Origin: Nanobdellota archaeon
Lineage (GTDB): Archaea; Nanobdellota; Nanobdellia; CSSed11-243R1
DNA: 64,000 bases
NCBI GenBank assembly: GCA_021163365.1
Contig: JAGGWW010000007.1
Location: 13,929-77,928 of the forward strand
Direction of reading: 5' to 3'
Made by a program: the position numbers and the translations under genes. Within the stretch, counting starts at the first letter, position 1; each line of letters begins with the position of its first letter. Positions 9,557 to 62,381 of this stretch are shown in pieces. The notes beneath the pieces are model-generated. The model saw only the letters and a program-made list of their open reading frames with translations, was not told where the DNA came from and did no database searches.

Positions 9557-11131
9557 ATGGGTTGGGTTGATAAAAAACTGGACTTAAATGAAGCTCTTAC
9601 TTTTGATGATGTTGTAATCCTTCCAACATATACAGAGGTTTTGCCACATGAACCAGATGTTTCTTCATATCTTACTAAGAAAATAAAATTGCACACACCT
9701 TTTGTAAGCTCTCCAATGGAGTCTGTTACAGAATACAAATTAGCAATAGCAATTGCTCAAAATGGTGGGTTTGGATTTATTCATCGTAATCTAACTCCAA
9801 CAGAACAAGTACAGCAGGTAAAACAGGTTAAGAGATATGAGGCTTTTTTAATTGAAAACCCAACTGTTGTGAAAGCAAGGAAAAAGAGAAAGGGAAGTTT
9901 TTATCCAACTAAAGTTAAAGAAGTTTTATCATTACGAGAAAAATATGGGTATTCTACATTTCCTGTTGTTGATGAAAATAACAATCTCGTTGGAATTGTT
10001 ACAGACAAAGATGTTAGGTGGAGAAGTCTTGATGAATTGGTTGAGGATATAATGGTAAAGGATGTTGTAACAATCCCTTATGTTAAAAATGATGATAAAT
10101 TAAGAGAGATGGCAATAGAAGCTATGAGGGATTATAGAGTTGGATGTGTTGTTGTAACAAGAAGAAGAAATAGCAAGAAAATAAAAGGTTTAATTACAGA
10201 AACAGACATAAAAAAAAGAGATAAGTTCCCATATGCTACAAGAGATAAAAAAGGAAGATTAATGGTTGGTGCTGCAATAGGTGTTGGAGAAAAAGAATTG
10301 GAAAGAGTTGCAAAGCTTTACGAAGCAGAGGTTGATGCAATTGTAATTGACATCTCTCATGGACATTGTAAGAATCTATTGGATGTTCTTTATCAAATTA
10401 AATCCAAAGAATATTTAACAAAAGTAAAAGAAACAGTTAAAAGAGTAAAAAAAGATTATGACATTCCTGTTGTAGGTGGCAACATTGTAACAAAAGAAGC
10501 TGTTGAAGATTTATATTCTGCTGAAGCAGATGCTCTAAGAGTTGGTATAGGTCCTGGTTCTATTTGTACAACAAGAGTTGTTGTTGGAATAGGACTACCA
10601 CAAATATCTGCAATTTTAGAAACAGCAGAAGTTGCACGAGATTATGGCATTCCAATAATTGCTGATGGAGGTATTAAATACTATGGTGATATAGCGAAAG
10701 CAATAGCAGCTGGAGCGAGCACTGTTATGATGGGTAGATTGTTTGCTGGAACTCAAGAAGCTCCTGGCGAATTAGTATCTTTGCATGGAAGGTTATACAA
10801 AAAATATTTTGGAATGGCTTCTGAAAGAGCATTAAAGAATAAGGCAGGTGGTGGAAGACTAAGATATCTTGAATTTTTGGATAAGCCAATTGATTATCTA
10901 CATGTTTTTCCCCAAGGAGTTGAAGGTTATGTTGATTATGCTGGCTCTTTATCAGATGTTATCAATCAAATGAGGGAGGCATTAAAAAAAGCAATGGCTG
11001 CAACGAATTCAAGAACAATAGAAGAATTTCATGAAAACGCTGTTTTAAGAAAGGTTTCAAAAAGCGGTGCAATAGAAGGGCATCCATCTGTTACTTTAGA
11101 AAAAGAACCAATAAATTATAGAAAAACTTAG
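9557..11131 (+). CDS. guaB: Inosine-5'-monophosphate dehydrogenase with CBS pair
   Basis: FDDVVILP start and the catalytic loop GIGPGSICTTRVVVGIGLPQ. GGIKYYGDIAKAIAAGASTVMMG. CBS domains inserted after the first beta-strand region. Confidence 0.9.
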   Translation: MGWVDKKLDLNEALTFDDVVILPTYTEVLPHEPDVSSYLTKKIKLHTPFVSSPMESVTEYKLAIAIAQNGGFGFIHRNLTPTEQVQQVKQVKRYEAFLIENPTVVKARKKRKGSFYPTKVKEVLSLREKYGYSTFPVVDENNNLVGIVTDKDVRWRSLDELVEDIMVKDVVTIPYVKNDDKLREMAIEAMRDYRVGCVVVTRRRNSKKIKGLITETDIKKRDKFPYATRDKKGRLMVGAAIGVGEKELERVAKLYEAEVDAIVIDISHGHCKNLLDVLYQIKSKEYLTKVKETVKRVKKDYDIPVVGGNIVTKEAVEDLYSAEADALRVGIGPGSICTTRVVVGIGLPQISAILETAEVARDYGIPIIADGGIKYYGDIAKAIAAGASTVMMGRLFAGTQEAPGELVSLHGRLYKKYFGMASERALKNKAGGGRLRYLEFLDKPIDYLHVFPQGVEGYVDYAGSLSDVINQMREALKKAMAATNSRTIEEFHENAVLRKVSKSGAIEGHPSVTLEKEPINYRKT

Positions 11132-24806: not shown

Positions 24807-25169
24807 ATGGGATTGTTTGATTTTTTGAAAAAGAAAAAAGAAGAGGACTTTGGGGAATTTGGTGGCGGGCTTGGTGGATTAGAACCAGGAATGCCAGGAG
24901 AACCCACCCCGCCAACAGCTGCACCACAACCACCACCATTATTTGGAGCACCAGAAACACCACCGCCTGGAACACCACCGCCATTAGCACCACCAATCTC
25001 ACCAACACCAGTTAGAATTGGGCCACAGCAACCACAGCAACAAGATAGAATTCAATTGTTAAAAAGCAGCATAGATGTGCTTTCATCGAAAATAGATGCA
25101 TTAAAAGCAACAATTGATAGAATAAATGAAAGGCTTGATTACATAGAACGCTATTTGCTAAGGAGATAA
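24807..25169 (+). CDS. Proline-rich protein with N-terminal amphipathic MGLFDFLKKKK and a C-terminal coiled coil (120 aa)
   Basis: MGLFDFLKKKKEEDFGEFGGG…, then a low-complexity Pro run (PTPPTAAPQPPPLFGAPETPPPGTPPPLAPP), then LLKSSIDVLSSKIDALKATIDRINERLDYIERYL. A local GC-rich island from the Pro/Gly codons. Its stop is adjacent to the start of the membrane protein downstream. Confidence 0.5.
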   Translation: MGLFDFLKKKKEEDFGEFGGGLGGLEPGMPGEPTPPTAAPQPPPLFGAPETPPPGTPPPLAPPISPTPVRIGPQQPQQQDRIQLLKSSIDVLSSKIDALKATIDRINERLDYIERYLLRR

Positions 25170-58347: not shown

Positions 58348-58782
58348 CTATTGATGATAGCCAGTTGGTAATTTAACTTCCTTTTTAGCAAGCACATCAA
58401 CTATTTTTACATCATCGTGTTTTCCATCATAAGGCAAACTTGATAAATAAGCTGGAAACTCATTTGCTATTCTTACTAATGATTCTATCTCTGAGGGAAC
58501 ATCTCCTAAGATGCCACGCCAGTAGTTTATATCTTCTAAAGCAGACTTAAGGTGTTCGAATTTTTCATTTATTTCAGCTTCAGAAGGATAAATATCTCCA
58601 CCCAAAGCACTTTGTTTATTTCTCTCTAAAATTAATTTTTTTAATTCACCTGCTTGCGTGAAATATGATTCTAAGATATTTAGAAGCGAAGAATAATCTT
58701 CATTTACTTCTTTAAGATTTTTAATTAATTCAAGTGCATCTGAAGGAATTTGTTCTATGTTTAGTTCTCTTATTCCATTCAA
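58348..58782 (-). CDS. Hypothetical protein (144 aa)
   Basis: ORF only. 4 nt downstream of the next gene. Confidence 0.4.
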   Translation of the reverse strand: MNGIRELNIEQIPSDALELIKNLKEVNEDYSSLLNILESYFTQAGELKKLILERNKQSALGGDIYPSEAEINEKFEHLKSALEDINYWRGILGDVPSEIESLVRIANEFPAYLSSLPYDGKHDDVKIVDVLAKKEVKLPTGYHQ

Positions 58783-58786
58783 AATC

Positions 58787-59263
58787 TCACCTTTTAGCTT
58801 TTTTTAGTTTTTCCAATTTTTTTAAAGCATTTAATTTCCTTGTTTGCAAATCATGTAAGTGAATACTATCAATTCTTAATTGTTCATGTTTAGCTATATT
58901 TGAAAGTTTTTGAATATGTTTTTCTTGCTTTAAAAGCTCATTTAATCTGTTTTTCAAATTAAGATACTCATGAACCAAAGAAGGATTCACACCACTTATA
59001 TCAACAATTGGGCCTGCGGCTTTTTTAAGCATATTTATCTTTTCATTACCAATTTCTCTTGCTATCTTTGTTAAATCATGATTTATTTTTTCAATTTCTC
59101 TAAGTATTGAACTATAAATATGTTGAAATCTTGGGTGAATTAATTTATTTTGCAAAGCATTCATTCTTTCAACAACAGCATTTATTTGCTTATCAATCTC
59201 TATTAACTCGTTTTCTATTTTGGCTATTTCCCGCTCAACATGTTTTGTGCTTGGTTCAAACAT
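58787..59263 (-). CDS. Coiled-coil hypothetical protein (158 aa)
   Basis: Heptad-rich K/E/L sequence. Confidence 0.4.
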   Translation of the reverse strand: MFEPSTKHVEREIAKIENELIEIDKQINAVVERMNALQNKLIHPRFQHIYSSILREIEKINHDLTKIAREIGNEKINMLKKAAGPIVDISGVNPSLVHEYLNLKNRLNELLKQEKHIQKLSNIAKHEQLRIDSIHLHDLQTRKLNALKKLEKLKKAKR

Positions 59264-59428
59264 AAAATCACCTTAATAATTTATTAAAGCACTTTTTATA
59301 TATAAATGTTTTCACTATTAGATGATAACAAATATTTTTATACTCTTGAAAACTATATATATTAGGCAGTTCAATGGCGTTAAGCATGGCTACCATATAA
59401 CCGCTAACCCAAAACCAATCCACATCTG

Positions 59429-59840
59429 CAAAGAGATTGGGCCTTAGAATCTCAATGCAGATGCCTGGGTTAAGTTATATGGTGCCATGGGGAGCAGGCT
59501 GTTTGGCTTGGATTGGATTTTTCAAAAGGAGTCAAACAGAAAAACTCCCCCATTGAGCCCAAAGTAATCAAAGGGGTATTGCCTTGTGCAGTGTTCCTAT
59601 GATTACAATGCCTTCGGGCAGTTCCAGTGCCTTTTGGCAAGACAAGTGCCAAACCTCTGGTTGCAAACCAGCCCAGGTCTCATGAAAGAAAGGGCCTTAG
59701 AATCTTTCATGAGATCCAGCAACTAAAGTTTGGTGCTTTGTCTTGGGAAGTAACTTCACCTGCAGTTGGGCTGGGTCCTTCGGGATCAGAGAACTGCAGG
59801 GAAGCTAAACTTCCCACTGGAGCCCAAAGATTTCTTTGAA
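59429..59840 (+). ncRNA. Structured GC-rich non-coding RNA of about 410 nt (candidate SRP 7S RNA or RNase P RNA; identity unresolved)
   Basis: GC content is well above the flanking sequence. Two hairpins are closed by UUCG tetraloops on the plus strand (UGCC-UUCG-GGCA at 59609-59620; GGUCC-UUCG-GGAUC at 59776-59789). A perfect 12-bp hairpin UCUCAUGAAAGA/UCUUUCAUGAGA has the loop AAGGGCCUUAGAA, and that loop sequence GGGCCUUAG recurs in a second hairpin at 59437-59458. The possible terminal helix CAAAGAGAUUGGGC…GCCCAAAGAUUUCUUUG would pair the 5' and 3' ends. GGUGCCAUGGGGAGCAGGC resembles the SRP domain-IV GG(A)AGCAGG element. The only ORFs here are two short overlapping frames. Confidence 0.5.
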
Positions 59841-59933
59841 ATTATGACAGCATTCTCAAAAGTAGTAATTGCTTGTTCAAGTGTTGTGATGTTCTTAGAA
59901 AGAAATATTAACATTAAATTTCTCTAAATAAAT

Positions 59934-60485
59934 ATGACGTTCATTTTAGTTTCAGTAATTGTTGCAATTGCTGCATCAATTGGAGGATTAATTGCAATTT
60001 ACACAAAAAAGGAAATTGAACAATTTGACAAATGGATAAAATATTCTGAAATTGCACTTTCTATACTTCTTGCAATTTTGATGATAAGCGTGCATAAAAG
60101 CGTGTGGCCTGTGTTGTTCTTAATTGTTGGTGCAGTATTTGTCATTCTCTTAAATAAATCTCTTTTCCACATTCATTTGAATAGATTTATAAGAGCGCTC
60201 ATGTTTGGATTTGCACTTGGAATATTGTTTAACATAAACAGAGATATTGCATTTCCATTTGCTGTTATCTTATCACTTCACAATATAATCAAAGGAAGCA
60301 GGATTGGTGCATACTATCTTGACAAAAGAAAAAACATCTTTAAGGTTATTGGTAATTTCCAAGCAATTTTTATAATCGCTGCGCTGTTAGGTTTTTATGT
60401 TTTCTCGAATCAACTCCTACAAGCAGTAGTTTTAAACTTTGCAGCAGGAGCAGTTATAACAACTGCAATTGGAACTAAAATCTAA
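59934..60485 (+). CDS. Polytopic membrane protein (183 aa)
   Basis: 6 hydrophobic segments. No family assigned. Confidence 0.45.
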   Translation: MTFILVSVIVAIAASIGGLIAIYTKKEIEQFDKWIKYSEIALSILLAILMISVHKSVWPVLFLIVGAVFVILLNKSLFHIHLNRFIRALMFGFALGILFNINRDIAFPFAVILSLHNIIKGSRIGAYYLDKRKNIFKVIGNFQAIFIIAALLGFYVFSNQLLQAVVLNFAAGAVITTAIGTKI

Positions 60486-60507: not shown

Positions 60508-60918
60508 TTAAGAAAGTGTTTTTGACAATTCAGCCAAAGGATGTCCTTTTACTTTTGTTTCAAATTCTTTATAATATCCAAAGGGTGCTCTAAAGACATC
60601 AATTCCTTTTTGTTTTGCAAAAGATTCCATTTCTTTGAGAATTGTTATTGCAATTGATGGTGTTGCCAAATTATTTGAAAGATGAGCATAAGGATAAATT
60701 AACAAGCAATCTGCTTTAACTTCATCTATTTGTTTTTTAACTGCAATTATCGCATTTCGTGCTGTTTCTGGTTCATCTCCTTTTTCAACACTAACTAATG
60801 CCACAATCACGTTTTTAAACTCTTTTTGTTCGCCATCTCTGTTCTCTGGCAAAATCTTCATTGCTGGCTTTGTTACCTTATACCTAAAGTATTCGCAATG
60901 CCATTGAAGTATTTTCAT
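60508..60918 (-). CDS. Free-standing archaeal ThrRS-type editing domain (D-aminoacyl-tRNA-deacylase-like fold)
   Basis: [13 protein letters not shown]…[26 protein letters not shown]…[24 protein letters not shown] aligns with the N-terminal editing domain of archaeal ThrRS (e.g. …VLVAFISVEK…[21 protein letters not shown]…[24 protein letters not shown]). ATGA overlap with the upstream catalytic gene. Confidence 0.85.
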   Translation of the reverse strand: [136 protein letters not shown]

Positions 60919-62381
60919 CTACTATCACTCCATGCAACAAAAATTGGCCTCTTTGTTAAAAGTCGTGGGACATACATTGGCCTTTTTGGGAATTCTCCAT
61001 ATTTTTCTTTAAACATTAAGATAAATTCATCTTTTGTCATCTCAACTATTTTTTCTTCTTCAGCCTTTGCTCCTTCTCTTATTACAACCTTAAGCTTACT
61101 ACCCCCAACTTCTTTATCACCAATAACAATTATGTATGGAATCCACCTCATCTTTGCATCGTGAACTTTTTTTGGAACTCTTTCACTTCTATCATCAATT
61201 CCAACACGTATGCCAGCTAATTCAAATTCATCTGCTAATTTCTCTGCAAATGGTAAATGCCTATCTGCAACAGGAAGCAACCTAACTTGTTCTGGAGAAA
61301 GCCACACTGGGAGCATCGGTAAAAACCCTTCTTTTTCCATACCAGCAGCTCTTTCAAGCATACTGCACAATGCACGCTCTACAGAGCCAAAAGAAGAAGC
61401 ATGTAAAACAATTTGAATTGGGTGTTTTTTGTTATCTTTTCCGACATATTCAAACCCAAACCTTTTTCCATTTTTAACATCCCACTGAACTGTTGAAATC
61501 TGTAAGTTATTCCCATCAGGCAAAATAGCTTGAAACTCATTTTTAAAAGCATAGTAATGCCACATTTCTCTCATTATCTTAAAGAAAGCTGGCATGTTCA
61601 TCTTTTTAATTATCTGTTTAAACCATTCCTTGTATTTATCAAAGTATTCATTTACAACTTCCCAACCAAAAGCCCAATCTTTTGCTATCATGCTTTCCAT
61701 GAGTTGTTGAAATTGCAAACAAAGTTCTTCGAACTCTTTTTTTGCAGATTTCTCATCTGCGCATAACGCGTGCATGTCACTCATTGTAAAATTGCGGACT
61801 CTTGCAAGGCCTAAAAGCTCGCCTGATTGTTCTCTTCTAAAGCAAATTGCTTCTTCATAAACCTTTAATGGAAGATGATTGTATGTATAAATCATCCTCT
61901 TAATTGCTGGAAAAGCACCAGGGTCAGAAGCAAATCTTAAAACAAGTTCCTTGTCGTCTGATTTAACTTTATACTCTCTTTCAAGAAACTCTTTCATTAA
62001 CTCAGCAACTTCCTTTACACTTGTTCTATACAACAAAGGATTTTGTATTTTAACAGCACCCCATGGGAGAGCAATGTTCTTTAATGCATAATCAAGTATT
62101 AAGTCTTTAATTAAAACACCATTTGGATACCATTTCATATTACCAATGTCGCTTTCAGGACAATAATCAACAAGTTCTAATTTTCTCATATAATCTATGT
62201 GCTTTGGCTCTTGTTTTTTCTCTGGTTTGCCAACAAGCTCGTTCCTAACAAAGTTCTTTAATGCCATGTACTTTCTGTCTTTCTTTTTCCACAGCTCACA
62301 TTTCTCCCAGTTATCCTTATTTACCTCATACTCTTTTCCATCAACGTCAATTATAACCCACCTAAAAAATTCACTTGGCAT
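60915..62381 (-). CDS. thrS: Threonyl-tRNA synthetase, catalytic core plus anticodon-binding domain (no editing domain)
   Basis: Class-II aaRS motifs (…FRREQSGELLGLARVRNFTMSDMH…, …HASSFGSVERAL…) and a C-terminal anticodon-binding domain (…LPVWLSPEQVRLLPV…IRVGIDD…). Confidence 0.9.
   Translation of the reverse strand: MPSEFFRWVIIDVDGKEYEVNKDNWEKCELWKKKDRKYMALKNFVRNELVGKPEKKQEPKHIDYMRKLELVDYCPESDIGNMKWYPNGVLIKDLILDYALKNIALPWGAVKIQNPLLYRTSVKEVAELMKEFLEREYKVKSDDKELVLRFASDPGAFPAIKRMIYTYNHLPLKVYEEAICFRREQSGELLGLARVRNFTMSDMHALCADEKSAKKEFEELCLQFQQLMESMIAKDWAFGWEVVNEYFDKYKEWFKQIIKKMNMPAFFKIMREMWHYYAFKNEFQAILPDGNNLQISTVQWDVKNGKRFGFEYVGKDNKKHPIQIVLHASSFGSVERALCSMLERAAGMEKEGFLPMLPVWLSPEQVRLLPVADRHLPFAEKLADEFELAGIRVGIDDRSERVPKKVHDAKMRWIPYIIVIGDKEVGGSKLKVVIREGAKAEEEKIVEMTKDEFILMFKEKYGEFPKRPMYVPRLLTKRPIFVAWSDSR

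Follow-up and report, generated by a model that had tools for sequence, protein, structure and literature searches.

Results

A structured RNA gene upstream of a membrane-protein gene

The 64-kb stretch of Nanobdellota archaeon DNA analyzed here (the window) carries a GC-rich island that is a genuine, conserved, highly structured noncoding RNA gene on the plus strand. It consists of two homologous units arranged head to tail, and the next gene downstream, in the same orientation, encodes a 183-aa membrane protein. An earlier note on this DNA, made from the letters alone, had marked 59429-59840 as an unannotated plus-strand structured RNA that does not code for protein. The fold, the covariation and the G-U asymmetry described below agree with that assignment, but the start was placed too late: alignment of the orthologous gaps gives an extent of about 59363-59830 (+), or about 470 nt, with conservation beginning some 66 nt further upstream (at about 59363). 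The conserved 5' part outside the noted span reads GGCAGUUCAAUGG...CAUAUAACC and is preceded by a TTTTTATAC box in the gap alignment.

Orthologous loci were collected from the contigs of membrane-protein relatives, which have a gap of 490-640 nt upstream of the gene, from homologues of the editing-domain protein of threonyl-tRNA synthetase (ThrRS) encoded nearby, and with a profile of the membrane protein. Labels such as L006, L007 and L009 denote the related loci or contigs compared with the window. The RNA is present in seven related lineages known from metagenome-assembled genomes (MAGs) or metagenomes: the window, L006, L007, L009, L012, L013 and L021.

The GC content is 46.8% in the region and 32.0% in the window. 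The minimum free energy (MFE) of folding lies far beyond chance for the noted span (z = -8.6) and reaches z = -10.7 for the full-length RNA, whose MFE fold recovers the helices supported by covariation. This is indeed the only long GC-rich island that codon content does not explain, the sole comparable one, at 24.75-25.15 kb, being a Pro/Gly-rich open reading frame (ORF). That ORF (24807-25169 (+), 120 aa) has a Pro/Gly-rich middle (…PGEPTPPTAAPQPPPLFGAPETPPPGTPPPLAPP…) and a coiled-coil-like C terminus, and its GC richness is explained by codons, not by an RNA. Public gene callers have placed hypothetical ORFs over the RNA in identical contigs (L001, 8874-9122 (-), 82 aa; L003, 642-968 (+), 108 aa); both are probably spurious. 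A 109-aa ORF of L012 (6718-7047), upstream of the single unit there, looks like a real gene.

Fold of the unit and its covariation

Each unit of about 200 nt has a bulged closing stem, P1, that opens into a three-way junction with two arms. P2, P5a and P1b abut without linkers, and the core is therefore a three-way junction. In arm A, P2 is followed by a conserved internal loop (CNCU/AA), by P3 and by P4, which is capped with the invariant loop GGGNCU..G. The second arm, arm B, comprises P5a-P5b-P5c, and in the unit family P5b carries an apical hairpin, often with a UUCG loop. Covariance model R1 was built from six unit-1 sequences only, with the structure proposed here; covariation was counted on an alignment of 10 units. 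The helix coordinates are as follows.

Unit 1:
59363-59561 (+), unit 1, the presumed core module, 200 bits with R1, supported by covariation and the MFE fold
59363-59367 / 59557-59561 (+), P1a
59368-59370 (+), P1 bulge AGU, 3 nt
59371-59377 / 59550-59556 (+), P1b
59378-59384 (+), J1/2, short, with a mini-hairpin of 2-4 bp in most copies
59385-59401 / 59474-59489 (+), P2
59402-59405 / 59472-59473 (+), J2/3, CGCU, the conserved internal loop (CNCU / AA)
59406-59411 / 59466-59471 (+), P3
59423-59430 / 59456-59463 (+), P4a
59433-59438 / 59448-59453 (+), P4b
59439-59447 (+), P4 apical loop GGGCCUUAG, 9 nt, invariant; family consensus GGGNCU-N1-3-G
59490-59494 / 59545-59549 (+), P5a
59500-59508 / 59530-59538 (+), P5b

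Unit 2:
59615-59826 (+), unit 2, a paralogous and presumably accessory module, 95 bits with R1
59615-59619 / 59822-59826 (+), P1a
59620-59622 (+), P1 bulge AGU
59623-59629 / 59815-59821 (+), P1b
59638-59654 / 59728-59745 (+), P2
59659-59664 / 59719-59725 (+), P3
59676-59689 / 59703-59716 (+), P4
59692-59700 (+), P4 apical loop GGGCCUUAG, invariant
59746-59750 / 59810-59814 (+), P5a
59756-59765 / 59794-59802 (+), P5b
59774-59787 (+), P5c, a UUCG hairpin

Several elements that the earlier note had picked out find their place in this fold. Both UUCG hairpins are present (UGCC-UUCG-GGCA at 59609-59620 and GGUCC-UUCG-GGAUC at 59774-59787), and the 9-nt loop said to be shared by two hairpins occurs exactly twice, starting at 59439 and 59692. 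This duplicated loop motif is real but is only one sign of the duplication of the whole unit. The A/U-rich stem, thought to have 12 bp, has 14 and is P4 of unit 2. The proposed pairing of the 5' and 3' ends, CAAAGAGAUUGGGC/GCCCAAAGAUUUCUUUG, did not hold up: it is unconserved, and GAGAUU pairs locally with AAUCUC as P4b.

In the 10-unit alignment, which was fitted to R1, standard pairs occupy 94.2% of the 622 helix cells, compared with 74% after shuffling of columns and 32-45% when the partner was slid by 1-3 columns; both sides change in 39 of the 63 helix pairs. The unit-2 rows were not used in building R1 and keep its pairs through many compensatory changes, making them an independent test of the unit-1 model. 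Covariation among the homologous loci thus confirms the fold. Fifty-five paired cells are G-U and would be A-C mismatches on the minus strand, which, together with the orientation of the promoter and of the T-runs, places the RNA on the plus strand. When the unpaired columns of the alignment were scanned for additional covarying runs, nothing convincing emerged and, in particular, no covarying partner inside the unit for the invariant P4 loop.

Some candidate elements were considered and discarded. A local hairpin in unit 2 (CUGGUU-GCA-AACCAG) is unconserved, and the long-range P3 is conserved. At the would-be kink-turns (the P1 bulge and 'GGC-UUG-GA' in P5) the positions of the sheared G-A pairs are Watson-Crick paired or lie in the pseudoknot described below. 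For steric reasons the P4 loop GGGNCU is unlikely to pair with J3/4, the strand next to it, whose nucleotides are taken by the pseudoknot; kissing of the two P4 loops through GGCC is broken by unit 1 of L009, which has GGGACU. A bulge-helix-bulge processing motif has 3-nt bulges on opposite strands, 4 bp apart. The P1 stems of all units carry just one 3-nt bulge, in the 5' strand, opposite an uninterrupted 3' strand.

A pseudoknot joins the two arms

J3/4, the strand that links P3 to P4, can pair with the 5' side of the internal loop on top of P5b:

59415-59422 / 59509-59516 (+), unit 1 pseudoknot, CCAAUCCA / UGGAUUGG
59668-59675 / 59767-59774 (+), unit 2 pseudoknot, CCAGCCCA / UGGGCUGG
Unit 1 of L006, L012, L013 and L021, AGGUCCA / UGGACCU
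L007, GGUUCA / UGAACC
L009, AAGUCCA / UGGACUU
Other unit 2 copies, (C)CAACCCA / UGGGUUG(G)

All 11 units have 7-8 or more contiguous pairs here. Every one of the 63 pseudoknot cells is paired, and both sides change in five of the seven pairs; slid controls gave 8-49%. The 5' strand covaries freely (GGUCCA, GGUUCA, AAUCCA, AGCCCA, AACCCA). The pseudoknot must clamp the P2-P3-P4 arm side by side with the P5 arm.

The RNA is an old tandem duplication

The two halves of the locus share GGCAGUUC, GGGCCUUAGAAUC and GAGCCCAAAG, each of which occurs twice, in the same order. Their local alignment scores 86, and shuffled sequences score 25 +/- 4.9, with a maximum of 46. With an nhmmer profile of the unit, two units were found in the window, L006, L009 and L013; L007 gave one good unit and a degenerate one, and L012 gave a single unit. 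An R1 search found a single unit in L021. Four of the seven lineages thus have two intact units, L007 has a decaying unit 2, and L012 and L021 have one unit. With R1, the unit-2 copies match along their whole length at 71-103 bits; in the window, the score is 200 bits for unit 1 and 95 bits, again along the whole length, for unit 2.

Identity is 58-91% among unit-1 copies, 61-82% among unit-2 copies and 45-60% across the two kinds of unit. Because it is lower between than within the kinds, the duplication is older than these lineages. The single units found in L012 and L021 share 84-91% identity with unit 1 of L013, which retains unit 2; hence, unit 2 was lost in L012 and L021.

Two further features lie at the boundary between the units:

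59562-59614 (+), spacer between the units, with a species-specific hairpin (59564-59570 / 59600-59606)
59609-59620 (+), hairpin UGCC-UUCG-GGCA, conserved, overlapping the 5' strand of unit-2 P1a

The spacer varies in length and sequence among the orthologues and is nearly absent in L007. The hairpin at 59609-59620 sequesters the 5' strand of unit-2 P1a, so that the two pairings are mutually exclusive. It is found in L006 and L013, and L009 has AUAUCC-CAAC-GGGUAU, with compensating changes. Because both units have the same GGGC/GCCC, covariation cannot tell the hairpin from the unit-2 P1a pairing; in the MFE fold, UGCC of the hairpin pairs instead with the 5' end of unit 1.

The RNA matches no known family

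A cmscan search with Rfam 15 gave no match anywhere in the 64-kb window at the gathering threshold or at E <= 1, in line with the earlier statement that neither signal recognition particle (SRP) RNA nor RNase P RNA is visible elsewhere in it. The region alone, searched with permissive filters, gave only chance matches (E >= 4), and three orthologous regions gave only chance matches at E <= 10, with no family recurring. ARAGORN found no tRNA and no tmRNA in the window, blastn found no match in phage and plasmid collections, and a search of the literature found no description of this RNA. The RNA is a new family absent from Rfam, and its fold is unmatched by any known class; of the readings first offered, the fallback to a divergent or different RNA was the right one.

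Distribution, loss and neighboring genes

Within the reach of the searches, the RNA occurs only in a small clade of Nanoarchaeota (DPANN) MAGs. An exact three-block DNA pattern yielded no contigs beyond those already known when it was run against the GTDB species genomes and the metagenome collection of JGI, and a related pattern found nothing in a viral collection; either the family is rare or the pattern was too strict. Within the clade, the membrane-protein gene is present with no RNA at the locus in L015/L016, L017-L019, L022 and L023/L024. The membrane protein of L022 is 78% identical to that of L021. The 200-nt intergenic region of L022 (2560-2763) is AT-rich, with an intact promoter-like box and a faint 3' remnant, CCATAGCTTAAAA compared with CACCGAGCCCAAAA, so that judged by sequence the site looks like a decayed RNA gene. 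The RNA is ancestral to the clade and was lost repeatedly, in part or as a whole, which is unlike the behavior of SRP or RNase P RNA.

On its other side, the RNA site is invariably bordered by two genes for small proteins (about 128-160 aa), in loci with and without the RNA alike (window 58348-59263 (-); L006 8543-9406; L007 116-1039; L013 8381-9315; L015 5255-6161; L022 1635-2560). Their orientation relative to the RNA differs among the lineages, and one of the two proteins may be a coiled coil, judging by its sequence. ThrRS is split in the window into an editing-domain protein (60508-60918 (-), 136 aa, PF08915) and a catalytic/anticodon-binding protein (60915-62381 (-), 488 aa), whose ORFs overlap by 4 nt. 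The ThrRS ORF of L009 (5273-7225) has at least 650 aa, there is no separate editing-domain gene, and the two parts may be fused.

Transcription signals and the downstream gene

From its sequence motifs, the RNA gene appears to have its own promoter of the B recognition element (BRE)/TATA type and to end at T-runs. The signals of the RNA gene and of the gene downstream are as follows:

59335-59343 (+), TATA-like box TTTTTATAC of the RNA gene, a motif with a predicted start at about 59363-59368
59830-59838 (+), T-rich stretch ATTTCTTTG, directly 3' of the RNA, a weak candidate for an archaeal oligo-T terminator
59902-59912 (+), promoter-like box AAATATTAACA, 22 nt before the ATG of the downstream gene
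59934-60485 (+), gene of the 183-aa membrane protein, separate from the RNA, which it always follows immediately and in the same orientation

All seven lineages have an TTTTTATA(C/T) or ATTTATAT box, 24-34 nt upstream of P1. The spacing agrees with that between TATA box and ATG in the leaderless genes of the window. Many of the first genes there lack a Shine-Dalgarno (SD) sequence and carry a TATA-like box 22-30 nt before the ATG, which is the leaderless layout; examples are the starts at 9557, 5740, 24730, 46916, 53191, 58316 and 59934. GGTG or GGAGG is found at 20 of the 61 ORFs of the window, mostly at operon-internal genes. Downstream of the last unit, runs of T5-T7 are present in L006, L007, L009 and L013, and the runs are weaker in the window, L012 and L021.

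The membrane-protein gene has signals of its own. CTAAATATTTATTAA(C/T) lies 22-26 nt from its ATG in all lineages, and it is found at the kept distance also in L015, L017, L022 and L023, which have no RNA. The distance from the RNA to this box varies from 8 to 70 nt, and no SD sequence precedes the ATG in the lineages compared. Because the leaderless distance of the box from the ATG is constant whether the RNA is there or not, the gene is presumably transcribed separately; its mRNA would be leaderless and start from its own promoter, and the RNA would be a separate gene. In the spacer 3' of P1 we found T-runs only: there is no conserved complementarity to P1 and no expression platform.

Very few relatives of the 183-aa protein were found, and no Pfam or NCBIfam family matches it. 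Its AlphaFold2 model has 7 helices (pLDDT 75), and Foldseek returned a weak ZIP-like match (BbZIP 5tsb, E = 1.8e-3, TMq 0.64). The alignment of the protein family shows no conservation of HN, the metal-site motif of ZIP proteins. The family has an invariant YTKxE motif after helix 1.

Discussion

We propose that the RNA is an independently transcribed, trans-acting accessory RNA gene of about 470 nt that founds a new family of structured RNAs, a reading to which we give a probability of roughly 55%. Being separately transcribed, the RNA would act in trans as a compactly folded particle, which would most likely scaffold the binding of a protein or a small ligand. Its recognition surface may be formed by the invariant unpaired elements: GGGNCU..G in the loop of P4, A-K-U in the bulge of P1 and the internal loop CNCU/AA between P2 and P3. 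Unit 1 would be the core, and unit 2 an optional second copy that makes the particle bivalent. We call the RNA accessory rather than housekeeping, since some close relatives no longer have unit 2 and others have lost the gene altogether.

Several points weigh against this proposal. The promoter, the terminator and even the expression of the RNA are predicted from motifs, and the weak T-runs of the window, L012 and L021 make read-through into the gene possible. The constant link to the same membrane-protein gene, always upstream and co-oriented and with differing neighbors on the upstream side, is the classic signature of a cis-regulator. The comparison covers seven lineages (11 units) that are closely related and belong to one synteny block. 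Scaffolding is the default reading for an orphan structured RNA, and as the specific mechanism it is much less certain than the proposal as a whole.

Could the RNA then be a cis-regulatory leader? In this case a riboswitch-like singlet or tandem aptamer would sense a metabolite or metal ion and control the ZIP-like membrane protein, for example, through termination regulated at the T-run or through an effect on the promoter downstream, with which it would interfere. This is the main alternative to our proposal, and we consider it possible but unlikely. The RNA does stand directly upstream of, and co-oriented with, the same gene family in 7 of 7 lineages, with varying upstream neighbors and orientations, but the association is confounded by synteny among close relatives. 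The head-to-tail homologous domains and the existence of both singlet and tandem forms recall glycine riboswitches, which occur as singlets and tandems, and a complex junction-plus-pseudoknot fold with invariant junction nucleotides would suit an aptamer; however, no Rfam riboswitch matches, the modules are of about 200 nt and the host is an archaeon. The modeled fold of the downstream protein is transporter-like, yet the metal-site motif of ZIP proteins is not conserved in its family. T-runs follow P1 in several lineages, but with an RNA-to-box spacing of 8-70 nt and nothing conserved that is complementary to P1, there is no expression platform. The loss of the RNA from loci that keep the gene is common for riboswitches; against this, the promoter-like box between RNA and ORF, of the leaderless kind, is unchanged in the loci that have no RNA. 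Finally, an internal AUG on a leader of about 500 nt would be poorly served with no SD sequence. The genome uses SD sequences for internal genes and leaderless starts for first genes.

Among aptamers with a junction and a pseudoknot, the unit can be set beside SAM-I, which has a P1-closed multi-helix junction and a pseudoknot from a loop to J3/4. Our unit is likewise a P1-closed junction whose two arms are held side by side by a pseudoknot that uses J3/4. Unlike SAM-I, it is about twice the size, has a three-way and not a four-way junction, places the 3' strand of the pseudoknot in the internal rather than the terminal loop of the other arm, and shows no similarity in sequence or by covariance model. 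It is possible but unlikely that the RNA represents a new DPANN-specific class of ligand-sensing or catalytic RNA, for example, an archaeal singlet or tandem riboswitch for a ZIP-like transporter. If this were true, such a riboswitch would use a termination or promoter-interference mechanism undescribed in archaea.

It is improbable that the units are processed or catalytic, that is, cut by self-cleavage or host endonucleases into two RNAs of about 200 nt, which might be circularized, or that they form a new ribozyme class. Each unit is self-contained, with its own P1, and a variable spacer and a conserved UUCG hairpin lie at the boundary of unit 2, but P1 is not a canonical bulge-helix-bulge and we found no evidence of cleavage sites. 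In its compactness, its pseudoknot and its invariant unpaired nucleotides, the core recalls the architecture of ribozymes, but no known self-cleaving family matches the region or three orthologues.

The two housekeeping RNAs that the earlier note had weighed can be set aside. A highly divergent archaeal RNase P RNA would account for a large (few hundred nt), GC-rich structured RNA in an AT-rich genome, with a closing helix of the 5' and 3' ends and a long-range pseudoknot, and for the failure to detect one elsewhere in the window; the 5' strand of several unit-1 pseudoknots, GAAAAGGUCCA, even loosely recalls the CR-I string GGAAAGUCC. Nevertheless, neither RNaseP_arch (RF00373) nor RNaseP-T (RF02357) matches the window at E <= 1 or the region and three orthologues (four orthologous copies) at E <= 10, the CR-I and CR-V strings are not present in the RNA, and the pseudoknot sequence varies freely where P4 of RNase P RNA is nearly invariant. 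The topology is also wrong: the pseudoknot connects J3/4 with the P5 internal loop, neither of its strands lies beside the 3' strands of P1/P2, and there are two homologous modules in place of a C domain and an S domain. With single-unit forms and outright loss at this locus in close relatives, the reading as RNase P RNA is effectively refuted.

The same holds for a divergent archaeal SRP (7S) RNA, which has a similar size range and GC richness and is likewise undetected in the window. Archaea_SRP (RF01857) has no match in the same searches at the same thresholds, and although GGUGCC...GGAGCAGGC, with its AGCAGG-like string, recalls the 3' strand of helix 8, GGAGCAGGC is the 5' strand of P5a plus an internal loop and is not conserved, with GGGUGCUAGUU, AGGCACUUGUU and GAGAUGCAGAU in the orthologues. 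There is no GNAR-capped helix 8 with SRP54-binding loops, no helix 6 and no long helix-5 rod in the covariation-supported fold, which is tandem and modular rather than a single rod and is dispensable in relatives; this reading, too, is effectively refuted. Two homologous modules, together with relatives whose loci hold a single module or none, are unlike a housekeeping SRP or RNase P RNA.

The RNA can also be compared with orphan structured RNAs. Noncoding RNAs of the Hgc/SscA type were recognized as GC-rich islands in AT-rich archaea, and raiA, ROOL and GOLLD are large orphan noncoding RNAs of bacteria. It shares with them the GC-rich island in an AT-rich genome, a complex fold supported by covariation and its orphan status. 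It differs in that it matches none of their models, has a distinct fold and a tandem duplication and is restricted to a DPANN clade. Its practical interest is limited by this narrow distribution and by the fact that the sole clue to function is the linkage to one membrane-protein gene. As a subject of study it is well defined, with a covariance model, a pseudoknotted secondary structure and seven orthologues.

To our knowledge, few large archaeal RNAs with complex folds have been described beyond rRNA, tRNA, RNase P RNA and SRP RNA, and almost none in DPANN archaea. These organisms have tiny genomes and depend on hosts. That such reduced genomes keep a pseudoknotted module with invariant unpaired nucleotides argues for a specific role of the RNA, be it in protein binding, ligand binding or catalysis.

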